Shown one piece after another: positions 12,157 to 19,606 of a stretch of 64,000 bases of DNA. The translations under genes and the position numbers were made by a program. Origin of the DNA: Candidatus Nitricoxidivorans perseverans (lineage in GTDB: Bacteria; Pseudomonadota; Gammaproteobacteria; Burkholderiales; Rhodocyclaceae); the NCBI GenBank assembly GCA_030246985.1, contig CP107246.1:372282-436281 (forward strand). Direction: 5' to 3'. The first letter of the stretch is position 1; each line of letters opens with the position of its first letter. Under the pieces are notes generated by a model that saw only the letters and a list, made by a program, of their open reading frames with translations, searched no databases and was not told the DNA's origin.

Positions 12157-12172
12157 TGGCACGCTCCTTGCC
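12157..12172 (+). promoter_or_regulatory. sigma54 promoter of nifH (TGGCAC-N5-TTGCC)
   Basis: TGGCACGCTCCTTGCC. About a 50-nt leader to the nifH ATG, with a GGAGA RBS. Confidence 0.8.
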
Positions 12173-12217: not shown

Positions 12218-13111
<894 letters not shown>

Positions 13112-13121
13112 GGAGAATGAC

Positions 13122-14570
13122 ATGCCCGCATTGACCCGCGAGGAAACCCAGGCCCTCATCGAAGAGGTGATCGAGGTCTATCCCGAGAAGGCGAAGAAGG
13201 ACCGCGCCAAGCACCTGATGGTCAACGACGTCACGCTGGAGTCGTCGAAGAAGTGCATCACCTCCAACCGCAAGTCGCTGCCGGGCGTGATGACCATGCG
13301 CGGCTGCGCCTACGCCGGCTCCAAGGGCGTCGTATGGGGCCCGATCAAGGACATGATCTCGATCTCCCACGGCCCCATCGGCTGCGGCCAGTACGCCCGC
13401 GGCGGGCGCCGCAACTACTACGTCGGCGCCACCGGCGTCGACGCGTTCAGCGAGCTCAACTTCACCTCGGATTTCCAGGAGAAGGACATCGTTTTCGGCG
13501 GCGACAAGAAACTCGCCAAGCTCATCAACGAGATCGAGACGCTCTTTCCGCTGAACAAGGGCATCTCGGTGCAGTCCGAATGCCCCGTCGGCCTGATCGG
13601 CGACGACATCGAGGCGGTGTCGAAGAAGGCCGCCGCCGAGATCGGCAAGCCCGTGGTGCCCGTGCGCTGCGAGGGCTTCCGCGGCGTTTCGCAGTCGCTC
13701 GGCCACCACATCGCCAACGATTCGGTGCGCGACTGGATCCTCTCCAACCGCGACGGCCGGCCGTTCGAGAAGACGCCCTACGACGTGGCCATCCTCGGCG
13801 ACTACAACATCGGCGGCGACGCCTGGGCTTCGCGCATCCTGCTCGAAGAGATGGGTCTGCGCGTCGTGGCGCAATGGTCGGGCGACGGCACGCTGGCGGA
13901 GATGGAGAACACGCCCAACGTCAAGCTCAACCTCCTCCATTGCTACCGCTCGATGAACTACATCAGCCGGCTCATGGAGGAGAAGTACGGCATTCCCTGG
14001 CTCGAATACAACTTCTTCGGCCCGACCAAGATCGCCGAAAGCTTGCGCGCCATCGCCGCCCGCTTCGACGACCGCATCAAGGAAGGCGCCGAGCGCGTGA
14101 TCGAGAAATACACGCCGGCGATGGACGCGATCATCGCCAAGTACAAGCCGCGTCTGCAAGGCAGGAAGGTGATGCTCTACGTCGGCGGCCTGCGCCCGCG
14201 CCACGTGGTCGGCGCCTACGAAGACCTGGGCATGGAAGTGATCGGCACGGGCTACGAGTTCGCCCACAGCGACGACTACGACCGCACGATCAAGGACGTT
14301 GGCGACGCGACGCTGATCTACGACGACGCCACCGGCCACGAGCTCGATGAGTTCGTGAAGGCCATGAAGCCCGACCTGATCGGCTCCGGTATCAAGGAGA
14401 AGTACGTCTTCCACAAGATGGGCTTCCCGTTTCGCCAGATGCATTCCTGGGACTACTCGGGGCCTTACCACGGCTACGACGGCTTCGCGGTCTTCGCCAA
14501 GGACATGGACCTGACGCTCAACAACCCGTGCTGGAAGATGCTCGCGCCGCCGTGGAAGAAGGCCGCCTGA
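13122..14570 (+). CDS. nifD: NifD (Mo-nitrogenase MoFe protein alpha chain)
   Basis: 482 aa. [66 protein letters not shown] and HCYRSMNY (FeMo-co Cys context). Confidence 0.97.
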
Positions 14571-14623
14571 GCAGACCCCGTGCCCGCCACGATGTTCGAT
14601 TCCACACCATAAGGAGAAACACC

Positions 14624-16537
14624 ATGAACGGTTCCTCGGATGCCCGCGTCGTCGAAGCCGCCGGCGCCAGTTGCGGCAGTGTCCACGCCTCGGTGCGCGA
14701 GATGGCCATGTTCCTCGACACGCGCAATGTCCGCACCTTCCTGCAGCGCAACGCCGAGCAGGGAACCTGCAAGCACGGGGAGCTGGGCGTCTGCTGCACG
14801 CTGTGCCCCGACGGCCCCTGCCGCATCCGCGAAAACGCGACCCGGGGCCGCTGCGGCATCGACGCCGACGGCATCGCCGCGCGCAACCTGCTGCGCCTGG
14901 TGAACCAGGGCGGCGCGGCCTACACCCACGACTTCAAGCACAGCATCGCCACGCTGCGCGCGGCCGCCCGCGGCGAGGGCGGCTTCCGCCTGCGCGACGA
15001 GGCCAAGCTGCGCTGGTTCGCCGGCGTCCTCGGCGTGGCCGGCGAGGGCCTGGGCGCGGCCGAGCTGGGCCTGCGCGTGGCCGATGCGCTGGAAGACGAA
15101 TTCCGCAAGGACGTGCATCAGCCGCTCGACCTGGTGCGCAACCTCGCGCCGGCGAGCCGTCTGCAAGTGTGGCGGACGCTGGGCGTCGTGCCCGGCGGCT
15201 ACCTGCACGAGGCGCACGAGGCCGGCGCCAAGGTGATGCCGAACATCGACACCGACTACGTCGACCTCTCGCTGACGGCGCTGCGCCTGGCCATCTCGGC
15301 CGGCTTCCTCGGCAACATCGCCACCTCGGTCATGCGCGACATCGTGCTCGGCTCGCCCGACATCACCGAGGGCGAGGCCGACCTCGGCGTGCTCGATCCG
15401 GCCTGCGTGAACATCATCCTGCACGGCCATGTGCCCTGGATGGGCGCAACCGTCGGCCGGCTGGCCAGGGAAGAGCGATTCCAGGCGCGGGCGCGCGCCG
15501 CCGGCGCCGCCGGCATCAAGGTCTACGGCAGCCTGTGCACCGGCCAGGAGCTGGCGCAGCGGCCGGACACCGCCCAATACCTCGACGGTCAGGTGGGCAA
15601 CTGGCTCTCCCAGGAATTCGTCGCCGCCACCGGCGTCGCCGACCTGTTCGTGATGGAGAAGAACTGCTCGGCGCCGGGGCTGCCGGCGGTGATCGAGCAG
15701 CTCAAGCTGCACACCCGGCTGGTGCCGGTCAACCCGGCCGTGCGCCTGCGCGGCGTCGCCGCCGACGCGTCCCTCGACTATGCGCCGGAGCGGGCGGAAG
15801 CCCAGGCGGAAAAGCTGATCGCCATGGCGATCGAGGCCTACGGCCGGCGCGATCCGGCCTATGCGCCGCGCGTGCCCGCCCACAAGACGCCCTACATCGC
15901 CGGCTTCGGCGTCGAGAGCGTGCTCAAGGCCCTCGGCGGCAGCCCGCAGCCGCTGCTGGACGCCATCGGCAACGGCACCCTCAAGGGCGTCGTCGGCCTG
16001 GTGAGCTGCGTCACCGCCAAGACCGGCGCCGGCGGCTTCCTCACCCGCTTCCTCGAGGAACTGCTGGCCCAGGACGTGCTGGTGCTGGTGGCCGGCTGCG
16101 CCTCCTCCACCGCCCAGATCGAAGGCTTCATGAACGGCGCGGCGGTGGAACGCTACGCCGGGCCGGGCCTGAAACAGGTCTGCCAGGCGCTCGGCATCCC
16201 GCCGGCGCTGAACTTCGGCTCCTGTCTGGACACCGGCCGCATGGCGCTGTTGATCCTCGCGCTCGCCGATTACCTGAAGGTCGATCCGACCAAGCTGCCG
16301 GTGGTCGCCGCCGCGCCCGAGTATTACAACAACGACGCGCTGATCGACGGCCTGCTGGCGGTGTCGCTGGGCATCAACACCTACGTCAATCCGGTTCCCC
16401 CCGTCACCGGCGGCGCCGACCTGACCAAGCTGCTCACCCAGGACCTGGACGGCCTGCTCGGCGCCCGCTTCCTGGTGGAGGCGGATCCGGTGCTGGCGGC
16501 CGGCAAGGTGGTGGAAGCCCTGTCGGCCCGCCATTGA
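14624..16537 (+). CDS. cooS: CooS-family (anaerobic Ni,Fe CO dehydrogenase catalytic subunit-like) protein encoded between nifD and nifK
   Basis: 637 aa, taken from ATG 14624 (AAGGAGA RBS) within ORF 14528..16537. It is colinear with C. hydrogenoformans CODH-II as remembered. N-terminal C-x7-CC-x2-C-x4-C...C (CKHGELGVCCTLCPDGPCR...RCG). Also NIILHGHVP, GIKVYGSLCTGQE, VMEKNCSAPG, LVSCVT, LVAGCASS, NFGSCLDTGR and LPVVAAAPE. Confidence 0.85.
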   Translation: MNGSSDARVVEAAGASCGSVHASVREMAMFLDTRNVRTFLQRNAEQGTCKHGELGVCCTLCPDGPCRIRENATRGRCGIDADGIAARNLLRLVNQGGAAYTHDFKHSIATLRAAARGEGGFRLRDEAKLRWFAGVLGVAGEGLGAAELGLRVADALEDEFRKDVHQPLDLVRNLAPASRLQVWRTLGVVPGGYLHEAHEAGAKVMPNIDTDYVDLSLTALRLAISAGFLGNIATSVMRDIVLGSPDITEGEADLGVLDPACVNIILHGHVPWMGATVGRLAREERFQARARAAGAAGIKVYGSLCTGQELAQRPDTAQYLDGQVGNWLSQEFVAATGVADLFVMEKNCSAPGLPAVIEQLKLHTRLVPVNPAVRLRGVAADASLDYAPERAEAQAEKLIAMAIEAYGRRDPAYAPRVPAHKTPYIAGFGVESVLKALGGSPQPLLDAIGNGTLKGVVGLVSCVTAKTGAGGFLTRFLEELLAQDVLVLVAGCASSTAQIEGFMNGAAVERYAGPGLKQVCQALGIPPALNFGSCLDTGRMALLILALADYLKVDPTKLPVVAAAPEYYNNDALIDGLLAVSLGINTYVNPVPPVTGGADLTKLLTQDLDGLLGARFLVEADPVLAAGKVVEALSARH

Positions 16538-16554
16538 TTGCAAAGGAGAGAGAG

Positions 16555-18123
16555 ATGCAAACCGCAGAAGAGATCAAACCGTGCTTCCCGCTGTTCCGGG
16601 ACGACGACTACAAGGACATGATCGCCCGAAAGCGCGAGACGTTCGAGGAAGTCCACGGCAGGGACAAGATCGCCGACACATTCGCCTGGACGACCACGAA
16701 GGAATACCAGGAGCTCAACTTCAAGCGCGAGGCGCTGACCGTCAACCCGGCCAAGGCCTGCCAGCCCCTCGGCTCCGCCCTGTGCGGCTTGGGATTCCAC
16801 AAGACCCTGGTGTACATCCACGGCTCGCAGGGTTGCGTCGCCTACTTCCGCACCTACTTCAACCGCCATTTCAAGGAGCCCATCGCTCTCATCGCCGACT
16901 CGATGACGGAAGACGCGGCGGTTTTCGGCGGCCAGAAGAACGTCCATGAAGGCTTGGCCAACGCCAAGGCGCTCTACGGAGCCGAGATGATCGCGATGTC
17001 GACGACCTGCATCGCCGAGGTCATCGGCGACGACCTGAACGCCTTCATCGGCAACGCCCGCAAGGAAGGCCACGTACCCATGGACTTCCCGATCCCCTTC
17101 GCCCATACGCCGAGCTTCGTCGGCTCCCACGTCACCGGCTGGGACAATATGGAGGAGGGCATCCTGCGCTATTTCACGCTGAACGGCATGGAGGGCAAGG
17201 CGCCGGGATCGAACGGCAAGATCAACCTCGTGCCGGGCTTCGAGACCTACCTGGGCAACTACCGCGTGATGAAGCGCTACATGAAGGAGATGGGCGTCGA
17301 CGCCACGATGCTCTCCGATCCCGAGGAAGTGCTCGACACGCCGGCCGACGGCGAATTCCGCATGTACGCCGGCGGCACGACGCAGGAAGAGGTCAAGGAC
17401 GCGCCCAACGCCCACACCACCTTCCTGCTCCAGCCGATGGGCCTCGACAAGACCAGGAAGTTCGTCGAGGGCACATGGAACCACGAGGTGCCCAAGCTCG
17501 ACATCCCGATGGGCGTCGAGTGGACCGACGCGTTCCTGATGAAGGTGTCGGAAGTCACCGGCAAGCCGATCCCCGCTTCGCTGGCGCTGGAGCGCGGCCG
17601 CCTGATCGACATGATGACCGACTCCCACGCCTGGCTGCACGGCAGGAAGATGGCGCTCTACGGCGATCCGGACTTCACGCTGGGCATGGTCAAGATGCTC
17701 ATGGAGTTCGGTGTCGAGCCGACGCACGTCGTCTGCCACAACGGCGGCAAGAAGTGGGCGAAGGCGATGGAGAAGCTGCTGGCTTCCAGCCCCTACGGCG
17801 CTTCCGGCCGCGCGTATCCGAGCGCCGATCTGTGGCACCTGCGCAGCCTGTGCTTCACCGACAAGCCCGACTTCCTTATCGGAAACAGCTACGGCAAGTT
17901 CATCCAGCGCGACACGCGGCACAAGGGCCCGGAGTTCGAGGTGCCGCTGATCCGCATCGGCTTCCCGATCTTCGACCGGCACCATCTGCACCGCCAGACG
18001 ACGCTGGGCTACGAAGGCGCGATGCAGGTGCTGACGACGCTGACCAACGCGGTGCTCGATCGCCTGGACGACCAGACGCGCGGCATGGGCACCACGGACT
18101 ACAACCACGATCTGGTGAGGTAA
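16555..18123 (+). CDS. nifK: NifK (Mo-nitrogenase MoFe protein beta chain)
   Basis: Last 522 aa of ORF 14671..18123. MQTAEEIKPCFPLFRDDDYKDMIARKRETFEE..., ACQPLGSALCGLGF, IHGSQGCVAYFR and C-terminal TDYNHDLVR. GGAGAG RBS upstream. Confidence 0.97.
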   Translation: MQTAEEIKPCFPLFRDDDYKDMIARKRETFEEVHGRDKIADTFAWTTTKEYQELNFKREALTVNPAKACQPLGSALCGLGFHKTLVYIHGSQGCVAYFRTYFNRHFKEPIALIADSMTEDAAVFGGQKNVHEGLANAKALYGAEMIAMSTTCIAEVIGDDLNAFIGNARKEGHVPMDFPIPFAHTPSFVGSHVTGWDNMEEGILRYFTLNGMEGKAPGSNGKINLVPGFETYLGNYRVMKRYMKEMGVDATMLSDPEEVLDTPADGEFRMYAGGTTQEEVKDAPNAHTTFLLQPMGLDKTRKFVEGTWNHEVPKLDIPMGVEWTDAFLMKVSEVTGKPIPASLALERGRLIDMMTDSHAWLHGRKMALYGDPDFTLGMVKMLMEFGVEPTHVVCHNGGKKWAKAMEKLLASSPYGASGRAYPSADLWHLRSLCFTDKPDFLIGNSYGKFIQRDTRHKGPEFEVPLIRIGFPIFDRHHLHRQTTLGYEGAMQVLTTLTNAVLDRLDDQTRGMGTTDYNHDLVR

Positions 18124-18134
18124 AGGAAGACATC

Positions 18135-18332
18135 ATGGCAATGAAAATCGTACAAGCGGAATGCTCGTCCTGCGGCGACTGCGTGCCGGTATGCGCCACA
18201 AAATCGATCACCGACAAGGGCGGCGTCTTCAAGATCAACAAGGAGACCTGCACCGAGTGCGAGGGCGAGGCCGACTCGCCCAAGTGCGTCGATGTCTGCC
18301 CGGCCGGCGATGCCTGCATCGTCTACGTCTGA
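18135..18332 (+). CDS. Small 2x[4Fe-4S] ferredoxin co-transcribed with nifHDK
   Basis: 65 aa at the end of ORF 17475..18332. MAMKIVQAECSSCGDCVPVCA... with a CxxCxxCxxxC motif and CTECEGEADSPKCVDVCP. It starts 11 nt after the nifK stop. Confidence 0.8.
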   Translation: MAMKIVQAECSSCGDCVPVCATKSITDKGGVFKINKETCTECEGEADSPKCVDVCPAGDACIVYV

Positions 18333-18341
18333 GGAGGCGCC

Positions 18342-18746
18342 ATGCGCGGATCGATCCTTGCCGCCTGCGCCTCGAACGAAGGTGAAATGCTCGACGGCCA
18401 TTTCGGTTCCTGCGAGCGGTTCCTGATCTACGAGGTCGGCGCGGAGGAATCGCGGCTCGTCGCCGTGCGTCCGGCGCCCGGTGACGACGGCACCTCCGCG
18501 CGCGTCCGGCTCGTCGCCGACTGCCAAGTGGTGTTCCTCCAGTCCATCGGCGGGCCGGCGGCGGCGAAGGTGGTGCGCGCCGGCGTGCATCCGGTGAAAG
18601 TGCCGAAGATCGGGCCGGCGGCGGAAACCCTGGCGAGGCTCCGGGAGTCGCTGAAAAGCCCGCCGCCCTGGCTGGCCAAGGCCATGGGCGTCGAGGCGGC
18701 CTCGCTCGCGCCCTTCCGCGAACTCGCCGGGGCCGGACCGGCGTGA
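18342..18746 (+). CDS. NifX/NifY/NafY-family (dinitrogenase FeMo-cofactor-binding domain) protein
   Basis: 134 aa. ILAACASNEGEMLDGHFGSCERFLIYEV...VFLQSIGGPAAAKVVRAGVHPVKV is the pattern of the NifB/NifX-type cofactor-binding fold. Its position after nifK matches nifY. Confidence 0.7.
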   Translation: MRGSILAACASNEGEMLDGHFGSCERFLIYEVGAEESRLVAVRPAPGDDGTSARVRLVADCQVVFLQSIGGPAAAKVVRAGVHPVKVPKIGPAAETLARLRESLKSPPPWLAKAMGVEAASLAPFRELAGAGPA

Positions 18747-19606
18747 ATGCCGCCGTGCCGGAAGAGGCCTTCCGCGAAGTGCTCGTGCGCGGCGGCTGGT
18801 ACCGGCTCGGCGGCGTCGTCGATGCCTCCGGCCGGCGCATCGCCGACGATATCAAGCGATGGGCCGAGGCGGAACTCGCCGCGCGGGACGACGACATGCA
18901 GGCGCTGGCCGACGATTTCGCCGGCCGGGGCCTGCGGGCAACGCGGTTCAACGGCAAGACCCACTACCGGGTGGCGGCGACCGGCGACGGCCCCACGGAT
19001 TTCCTGCAACTCGAAATCGAGGAATTGCAGGAGGTGGCCTGCCACCCGCTCTTCGCCGGCGACGCCCCGCCGTCCGACATCGAGGAGATCGTCGATCCGG
19101 CCGGACCGTGCGATGGCCAGGATCCGCTTGGCGCGCCTTTCCTCGTGGAGCGCCGGATCACCGACATCGCCGACTTTCTCGCCCGGATGCGCGCGCAGAG
19201 GCCCGAGCCCCAACCGGTTCACCGCTTCGTCGAGGATTGGCGCCGGAGCGGCGCCGGCGCCGCGACCCCGTTCGCCAGCCATTGGGTATTCGCGGTGCGC
19301 GAGCATCTCGACCGCTACCGGCAGTGCGTCCTGAACGCCACGCCCGTGGCGACCCTGAACGGGCCGCCGCCGCGATTCGAAAGCGTCTTCGGTGCACAGG
19401 GGCTGGCGCTCCATGAGGCATTGAAGCGTTTCGACTGCCAGGCCGGCTACCCGATGGCCTGGTTCTTCCACATGCTGACGACCAAGACCGTGCCGCACGC
19501 CGTCGCCAGCGCGGCGATCGAAGACGTGCAGGCTGGATTCCGCTACCTGCCGGATCGCGACGTTCAGGTGGTCAGGGACTGGCTGCACCGTCCCTACGGG
19601 TTTTAA
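18743..19606 (+). CDS. Uncharacterised 287-aa protein, last gene of the nifHDK transcription unit
   Basis: ORF with a GTG start overlapping the upstream stop (GTGA, 18743-18746). Protein-like composition. No motif recognised. Confidence 0.55.
   Translation: MNAAVPEEAFREVLVRGGWYRLGGVVDASGRRIADDIKRWAEAELAARDDDMQALADDFAGRGLRATRFNGKTHYRVAATGDGPTDFLQLEIEELQEVACHPLFAGDAPPSDIEEIVDPAGPCDGQDPLGAPFLVERRITDIADFLARMRAQRPEPQPVHRFVEDWRRSGAGAATPFASHWVFAVREHLDRYRQCVLNATPVATLNGPPPRFESVFGAQGLALHEALKRFDCQAGYPMAWFFHMLTTKTVPHAVASAAIEDVQAGFRYLPDRDVQVVRDWLHRPYGF

Follow-up and report, generated by a model that had tools for sequence, protein, structure and literature searches.

In the canonical carbon monoxide dehydrogenases (CODHs) of the CooS family, His93 and Lys563, as numbered in CODH-II of C. 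hydrogenoformans, hydrogen-bond the non-protein ligands of the C cluster (PMC6005268). The acid-base histidine is replaced by tyrosine in clades C, D and G, and the lysine by glutamine in clade C (PMC6344411, Table 2); clade D has Tyr (or Asn) at the His93 position, and its structural groups D-1 to D-4 keep Lys563 in a Glu-x-Lys motif. The Glu two residues ahead of the Lys563 position is the seventh ligand of the hybrid cluster in the hybrid-cluster protein HCP (PMC6344411; PMC10502027). Engineered CODH-II variants H93A, H96D, K563A and K563H exist as PDB entries (7zxl, 7zxj, 7zxx and 7zxc, according to their titles). The equivalent Moorella mutants reportedly lose CO oxidation. Clade D CooS proteins are widespread, and their sole characterized member, CooS-V of C. 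hydrogenoformans, shows neither CO nor CO2 activity, contains no Ni, carries a redox-morphing Fe/S/O cluster and reduces hydroxylamine (NH2OH) at 0.13 s-1; Jeoung et al. attributed the Ni loss mainly to the exchange Cys295Glu (PMC9311411). Clade D knock-outs have revealed no role in CO metabolism, and a clade C (Tyr/Gln) enzyme is reported to oxidize CO with low activity (bioRxiv 10.1101/2025.09.14.676152). Two Persephonella proteins, WP_012675684 of P. marina and WP_097000782 of P. hydrogeniphila, are listed among the clade D 'others' with a type II D-cluster, the residues Y, H, C, C, C, C, C, D and an N-terminal Cys2 motif (PMC6344411, Suppl. Table 1), so that the Y...D pattern is already tabulated by Inoue 2019, yet no group has ever been defined by it, nor has it been studied. 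In this work, we describe a gene with this pattern that lies inside a nitrogenase operon. It occupies positions 14624..16537 (+), between nifD and nifK, of a 64-kb stretch of contig CP107246.1 from Candidatus Nitricoxidivorans perseverans, which is referred to here as the window; its product of 637 amino acids is hereafter called window CooS. The gene encodes a full-length, selectively maintained iron-sulfur enzyme on the clade D CooS scaffold, and belongs to a narrow group having Tyr and Asp at the positions of the His93/Lys563 pair (hereafter the Tyr/Asp subgroup). In the literature, we found no description of any cooS gene inside nifHDK.

The family membership of window CooS is supported by profile searches, by its predicted fold and by phylogeny. 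It scores 612.8 bits on TIGR01702 (anaerobic CODH catalytic subunit), against a cut-off of 478, and 418.7 bits on PF03063, and only 20.8 bits on the HCP model TIGR01703, for which the cut-off is 360.8. Its AlphaFold model (pLDDT 81.7, pTM 0.87) was compared by Foldseek with solved structures, and those matched include 6t7j, 6b6w, 6elq and 1su6; the template-modeling (TM) score is 0.92 to CooS-V (7b7q) and 0.89–0.91 to canonical CODHs (0.89–0.90 to CODH-II). The closest solved relative is CooS-V by both sequence (1.9e-133) and fold. A tree of 121 sequences was built by maximum likelihood, with the structures of clades E/F as the root; in it, window CooS nests in the clade holding 7b7q, apart from the E/F structures, with a support of 100 in the Shimodaira–Hasegawa-like approximate likelihood ratio test (SH-aLRT). 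The name clade D follows, through CooS-V and Persephonella, the usage of Inoue 2019 (PMC6344411) and of Böhm & Land (bioRxiv 10.1101/2025.09.14.676152). Within this clade, the Tyr/Asp subgroup comprises 27 sequences of at least 57% identity, and is monophyletic (SH-aLRT 100), with a long stem of 0.6; its sister, with a support of 97, is the Cys295Glu group of CooS-V. Its basal member is from Hydrogenisulfobacillus, 16 others are from Aquificota (Persephonella, Aquificaceae), and ten are high-GC sequences, mostly metagenomic, which include window CooS. In a search of 1.84 billion representatives clustered at 50% identity, Asp at position 563 was found in none of the 61 full-length CooS-family representatives, and the same library held one near-full-length representative of the Tyr/Asp subgroup, plus fragments.

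The residue numbering was fixed by searching two 50-residue fragments of window CooS (residues 80–129 and 551–600) against the PDB, with CODH-II (1su6) as reference. Residues 2–47 of the second fragment align without a gap to 544–589 of the 1su6 chain, which places D571 at Lys563, N569 at His561 and D575 at Ile567, while residues 2–50 of the first align to 74–123, placing Y100 at His93, with a single gap only after residue 118. In full-length phmmer alignments, 6t7j, 6elq and 6vwy show His at Y100 and Lys at D571, and CooS-V (7b7q) shows Tyr at Y100 and Lys at D571. On the DNA level, codon 100 (TAC, 14921..14923, +) sits in GGAAYTHDFKH, and codons 569–571 (AAC AAC GAC, 16328..16336) sit in PEYYNNDAL, the stretch N569-N570-D571-A-L-I-D575 extending over 16328..16348 (+), with Asn569 at the HCP-type Glu position and the GAC of Asp571 at 16334..16336. 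An earlier interpretation made from the letters of this DNA, here called the sequence-only reading, had aligned the product by eye to CODH-II and had put Tyr100, Asn569 and Asp571 at exactly these positions; this is borne out by the computed alignments to the solved structure, in which both sites are ungapped, so that window CooS is without the canonical acid/base pair. A shifted register, in which H102 or K105 would be the catalytic residue, was looked for, as it would have undone that assignment, and was rejected, because the alignments to four solved CODHs are ungapped near both sites. The CODH-II counterparts of H102 and K105 are residues 95 and 98; in the model, both share a helix with Y100, two and five positions farther on, and should thus face elsewhere.

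The metal ligands are intact, as had also been claimed. The Cys codons of the D- and B-clusters (14768..14854, +) follow the spacing C49-X7-C57-C58-X2-C61-X4-C66-X10-C77, which is that of a type II D-cluster, and the six C-cluster ligands H269, C305, C348, C462, C492 and C534, with codons within 15428..16225 (+), correspond to H261, C295, C333, C446, C476 and C526 of CODH-II. In addition to the acid/base pair, the canonical second-sphere and channel residues His96, Gln332 and Ile567 are absent, their places being taken by Asp103 (14930..14932, +), Asn347 and Asp575. The replacement of the acid/base residues therefore stands, but its description as a simple loss does not, since the protic residues Tyr100, Asp103, Asp571 and Asp575 stand in for them.

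These exchanges are shared by the whole subgroup. Tyr93, Asp96, Asn-Asn-Asp at 561–563 and Asp567, together with the full ligand set, are present in 27/27 members, and the sequence-only reading had named the conservation of the Y/D pair in orthologs as a check of its proposal. A comparison across groups shows that part of the signature is clade-wide. At His93 the rest of clade D also has Tyr (90/91), and the E/F structures have His; Asn at Gln332 and Asp at Ile567 are likewise found in the rest of clade D, where the E/F structures have Gln and Ile. At His96, by contrast, Asp in all 27 members stands against His in 86 of the 91 other clade D sequences and in the E/F structures, and at 561–563 Asn-Asn-Asp stands against Glu-Gln-Lys in 91/91 and Ser/His-Glu-Lys in the E/F structures. 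Tyr93, Asn332 and Asp567 are thus clade-wide, and Asp96, Asn561 and Asp563 are subgroup-specific; with Asn-Asn-Asp at 561–563, the subgroup has lost both the CODH lysine and the HCP-type glutamate. A suggestion that the pattern is peculiar to the copy in the nif operon does not hold, as Tyr93 occurs across the clade and Y...D has been tabulated for the two Persephonella proteins (PMC6344411). In window numbering, the invariant swaps specific to the subgroup include H103D, E105K, E569N, Q570N, K571D, Q238R, R198H, H63D and D470G, along with others. By our own tally the net charge is roughly constant over nine charge-changing positions, which points to a redistribution of charges more than to their plain loss.

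The pocket is, moreover, under constraint. The ratio of nonsynonymous to synonymous substitution rates (dN/dS) is 0.14–0.38 between the window gene and five homologs, and 0.20 against a 99%-identical metagenomic copy. In a 19-sequence alignment of the subgroup, 34% of positions are invariant overall, with 60/79 positions invariant in eight ligand and second-sphere segments as compared with 155/558 elsewhere (Fisher p = 2e-16). An invariant pocket and purifying selection speak against a site in decay or one that only relays electrons, and make unlikely the pure electron-transfer role that the sequence-only reading had offered as one outcome. As for the N terminus, the Cys motif is lost in window CooS (14624–14690, residues 1–22) and in its 99%-identical twin, of which only C17...H21 is left; all other subgroup members keep it, those of the high-GC clade as Cx3Cx5Cx3H and those of Aquificota as CxxCx3H (loci L024, L007, L005 and L001 were compared).

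Window cooS lies within what is predicted to be a single nitrogenase transcript. A perfect sigma-54 -24/-12 promoter, TGGCAC-N5-TTGC (12157..12171, +), stands 50 nucleotides (nt) upstream of nifH (12221..13111, +; identified from its translation), and is the only + strand match with 0–1 mismatches before the end of nifK; a scan of this strand through nifK, including the surroundings of cooS, showed no sigma-70-like promoter, terminator or other good sigma-54 site. nifD (13122..14570, +; PF00148) is followed by a 53-nt spacer (14571..14623, +) containing the ribosome-binding site (RBS) AAGGAGA, and the intact cooS reading frame begins behind this strong RBS (taaggaga). Between cooS and nifK (16555..18123, +; PF00148 and DUF3364) lies a 17-nt spacer, TTGCAAAGGAGAGAGAG (16538..16554, +), which matches the nifK RBS region of relatives (GCAAAGGAGA), and the final ~20 nt of the nifD-cooS spacer are similar to the 5' leader found in standalone homologs. 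From the spacer match and the leader likeness, we infer that the insertion consisted of the coding sequence with its own RBS, placed immediately ahead of the nifK RBS. Five family relatives have nifK next to nifD, the two genes being separated by spacers of 95–212 nt. Vertical inheritance of the gene was rejected, since CooS homologs were found in 0/60 family and order relatives and in 0/400 genomes sampled from the class. Linkage to nif was likewise rejected as a trait of the subgroup, as 24 other loci are solitary with no nifH, nifD or nifK nearby, and the order nifD-cooS-nifK is repeated only in the 99%-identical metagenomic contig L023. The genome is a single contig of 2.70 Mb with 65% GC, and cooS is single-copy in it. 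The GC content at third codon positions (GC3) of cooS is 0.936, equal to that of nifH and nifD (0.93) and above the 95th percentile (0.92) of long open reading frames (ORFs), whose median is 0.79; for a lineage-specific gene, this suggests either long residence or selection for high expression. Directly after nifK, a 65-residue 2x[4Fe-4S] ferredoxin is encoded (18135..18332, +), which is a possible electron partner of window CooS. Also downstream of nifK, beside this ferredoxin gene, is a NifX/NifY-like gene, the stop of which is overlapped by a 287-residue ORF (18743–19606) without a Pfam match.

The control regions of the standalone homologs are of a different kind. A perfect FNR/CRP-type box, TTGAYN4RTCAA, is located 76–84 nt upstream of the ATG in four of five high-GC standalone copies, and the fifth keeps one half-site; the boxes lie at L007 581–594, L024 789–802, L025 1132–1145, L026 58–71 and L005 ~2860. 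The box is unique in each locus, the chance of its occurrence being 0.07–0.26% per shuffled upstream region, and it is absent from the 53-nt nifD-cooS spacer. hcp genes are under FNR-family, low-oxygen regulation, of which these boxes are reminiscent. The Hydrogenisulfobacillus copy (L003 1–7786) lies near a cytochrome bd operon and is divergent from the gene of a Crp/Fnr-family regulator; it has a TGTGG-N6-TCACA palindrome about 90 nt upstream. The boxes suggest that the standalone genes respond to low oxygen or nitric oxide (NO), and the window copy would then have exchanged FNR-type control for NifA/sigma-54 control. Farther upstream of the boxes there are conserved elements (TGTCGCAAA..., TTTTGTCG... 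and AACAAAACAAT), among which a TGT-N10-ACA match occurs in three loci. The L025 copy is situated 235 nt downstream of a gene (2–973) ending in a BFD-like [2Fe-2S] domain, which is typical of assimilatory nitrate or nitrite reductases; the C-terminal part of this translation resembles an assimilatory nitrate reductase, and hints at N-oxide metabolism. In L005 (6200–11382, −), the standalone homolog stands beside genes for a molybdopterin oxidoreductase, a 4Fe-4S subunit, a NarJ-like chaperone and a multiheme cytochrome, which together form a respiratory enzyme of the type II DMSO-reductase family. As judged by its neighborhoods and boxes, the family seems to respond to low oxygen or N-oxides, and to be at home in microaerophiles and nitrate respirers, not in carboxydotrophs.

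The genome as a whole provides some further constraints. Window cooS is its sole gene of the CODH/HCP family, no second CODH and no HCP being found in the whole genome. The operon contains no Ni-insertion accessory gene (CooC, CooJ or CooT), and in a regular-expression scan of the six-frame genome translation the CooC Cys-X-Cys motif was found in none of six ParA/Mrp-like P-loop proteins, CooJ and CooT not being part of the genome-wide search. Some CODHs mature without CooC. The genome has at least three loci for [NiFe]-hydrogenase large subunits, which indicates that the organism handles Ni. CowN (PF20543) was not found in the genome; as only 6 of 14 nif+ relatives of the family have it and 8 do not, its absence carries little weight for a role in CO metabolism. 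In one of these relatives (G010), cowN (C1:1204803–1205078) is about 1.6 kb downstream of nifK (1201641–1203206). Mutual exclusion with HCP, as would be expected if the Tyr/Asp protein replaces it, was looked for among Aquificota: HCP is found in 0/14 genomes with a Tyr/Asp gene, but it occurs in only 4/121 genomes of the phylum anyway. A different CooS-like protein of ~640–700 residues, which scores ~45–55 bits on the HCP model, above the Tyr/Asp type, is encoded in 23 of the 121 Aquificota genomes (G475–G587), and is probably another clade D group.

On these grounds we favor, with about even confidence, the view that window CooS may be a low-oxygen-induced reductase of a small oxidant rather than a canonical CO dehydrogenase, and that it would have been co-opted to accompany or protect nitrogenase. 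The second sphere serving CO/CO2 chemistry is rebuilt, with His93 changed to Tyr, His96 to Asp, Gln332 to Asn, Lys563 to Asp and Ile567 to Asp, and the HCP-type Glu at position 561 has likewise given way to Asn. Judging from the positions of these residues in the sequence, the pocket would have shifted from cationic, stabilizing Fe-OH and Ni-COO-, to acidic, and would disfavor anionic carboxylate intermediates. The tyrosine hydroxyl and the carboxylates could deliver protons for reducing a small oxidant, either neutral or cationic, the candidates being O2 or H2O2, NO and hydroxylamine, while low-potential electrons would enter through the D and B clusters. The protein would be made together with nitrogenase from the nifH sigma-54 promoter; its codon usage matches that of nifH and nifD, and its role would be the removal of an oxidant that damages nitrogenase. 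That the enzyme does not carry out canonical CO oxidation had been proposed in the sequence-only reading, and this part is strengthened by the CO-inactive and Ni-free state of CooS-V, the only characterized member of clade D (PMC9311411), as well as by the concurrent replacement of Gln332 and Ile567.

Several points weigh against this view. Cys295, the loss of which Jeoung et al. named as the main cause of the Ni-free cluster in CooS-V (PMC9311411), is retained, so a genuine Ni,Fe C-cluster is still possible in window CooS, and the genome, with its hydrogenases, matures Ni enzymes. In principle, Asp or Tyr could act as base or hydrogen-bond donor, so that slow CO oxidation is conceivable, and a Tyr/Gln enzyme of clade C does show low CO oxidation (bioRxiv 10.1101/2025.09.14.676152). 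The identity of the oxidant is a guess, as CooS-V has no NO reductase activity and turns over NH2OH only at the slow rate given above (PMC9311411). Finally, the electrostatic argument is built on sequence positions, not on distances.

Three other explanations have to be weighed against the oxidant reductase. Trace CO is a potent inhibitor of nitrogenase, and window CooS could be a non-canonical CO dehydrogenase that scrubs it and returns the electrons to ferredoxin, as an analog of CowN in which Asp571 and Tyr100 would be the substitute base or hydrogen-bond donor. All six C-cluster ligands, including Cys295, the Ni-handling capacity, the placement of cooS on the nifHDK transcript, the ferredoxin gene that follows nifK and the activity of the clade C enzyme (bioRxiv 10.1101/2025.09.14.676152) are compatible with such a function; CowN is missing here and present in six nif+ relatives, but the eight relatives that also do without it offset this, and CowN absence and the [NiFe]-hydrogenases keep a CO-scrubbing role alive without favoring it. 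We nevertheless regard it as unlikely, because H93, H96, Q332, K563 and I567 are all replaced at once, no CooC-like maturase was found in the genome, the standalone homologs have FNR-type boxes and not an adjacent CO sensor, the only clade D enzyme characterized is inactive with CO (PMC9311411), and clade D knock-outs lack a CO phenotype.

A redox or small-molecule sensor, whose cluster state would modulate nitrogenase activity or expression with no turnover, an idea already put forward for clades C and D, appears less probable still. Clade D genes are mostly solitary or beside regulators (bioRxiv 10.1101/2025.09.14.676152), a Crp/Fnr regulator adjoins the Hydrogenisulfobacillus copy, and the CooS-V cluster rearranges with redox state (PMC9311411). 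Against this, the CooS fold spans the whole length and leaves no output domain, and the nifH/nifD-like GC3 (0.936) together with the nifHDK position implies nitrogenase-like abundance, which is unusual for a sensor. Most improbable of all is a pure electron-transfer module or decaying passenger gene having no active-site chemistry. An electron relay would need no more than the B and D clusters, and the gene is indeed a lineage-specific insertion, absent from all 60 relatives and 400 class genomes; yet its reading frame is intact behind a strong RBS, the low dN/dS extends even to the comparison with the 99%-identical copy, and the C-cluster ligands and subgroup pocket residues are invariant across phyla. 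More tentatively than the oxidant reductase itself, we suggest that the Tyr/Asp subgroup may carry an active site of a third kind, built on the CooS scaffold but neither a Ni,Fe C-cluster nor a Glu-ligated hybrid cluster, which in this genome could have become a dedicated nif accessory enzyme, made from the nifHDK transcript and either protecting nitrogenase (from O2/H2O2, NO or CO) or feeding it electrons.

If this last proposal is true, window CooS would stand for a new class of nif accessory function. What is new here is the nifHDK context and the definition of the Tyr/Asp group, the signature itself having been tabulated earlier. The subgroup is a natural test of the idea that the Cys295Glu exchange accounts for Ni loss, as Cys295 is kept while the charge of the second sphere is inverted, and its Ni content and substrate would reveal the residues on which the choice between CODH and hybrid-cluster chemistry depends. 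With the copy in the nif operon comes a physiological context, namely predicted co-expression with nitrogenase in a genome having no other CODH or HCP, and no other clade D enzyme has offered such a testable setting for a deletion phenotype (diazotrophic growth under O2, NO or CO). The label 'anaerobic carbon-monoxide dehydrogenase catalytic subunit', which the TIGR01702 equivalog confers, probably over-calls the function of the Tyr/Asp subgroup.

A comparison with the known systems places window CooS as follows. With the canonical CODHs of clades E/F (CODH-II 1su6, CODH-IV 6elq, D. vulgaris 6vwy and Thermococcus 6t7j) it shares the fold, the B/D motifs and the six C-cluster ligands; unlike them, it is without His93, His96, Gln332, Lys563, Ile567 and the Cys294-Cys295 doublet, and its genome has no cooC, cooF or cooA-type gene as partner. 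HCP (TIGR01703) has the superfamily PF03063 in common with window CooS, which differs in having neither of the two Glu ligands (295, 561) (PMC10502027) and in possessing the D-cluster motif of the CODH dimer type; by analogy, window CooS could fill the niche of HCP, which this genome does not encode. CowN (PF20543), which protects nitrogenase from CO, resembles it in being co-located with nifHDK in relatives and offers a possible functional analogy, although it is an unrelated protein of ~90 residues. The Persephonella proteins carry the same signature at 61–64% identity and fall in the same monophyletic subgroup; their genes differ in being solitary, in microaerophilic Aquificota, with no nif linkage and with an N-terminal CxxC...H motif. 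CooS-V (7b7q, group D-1), of the sister group, likewise has Tyr at His93, Asn at Gln332 and Asp at Ile567 and no link to C1-metabolism genes. Genes of its type have been described only in organisms with other CODHs (PMC9311411), whereas the genome studied here has no other. CooS-V combines Cys295 to Glu and a type III [2Fe-2S] D-cluster with retained Lys563, His96 and the HCP-type Glu561; window CooS, unlike CooS-V, keeps Cys295 as C305 and a type II D-cluster with C57, and carries Asp571, Asp103 and Asn569 in its pocket.

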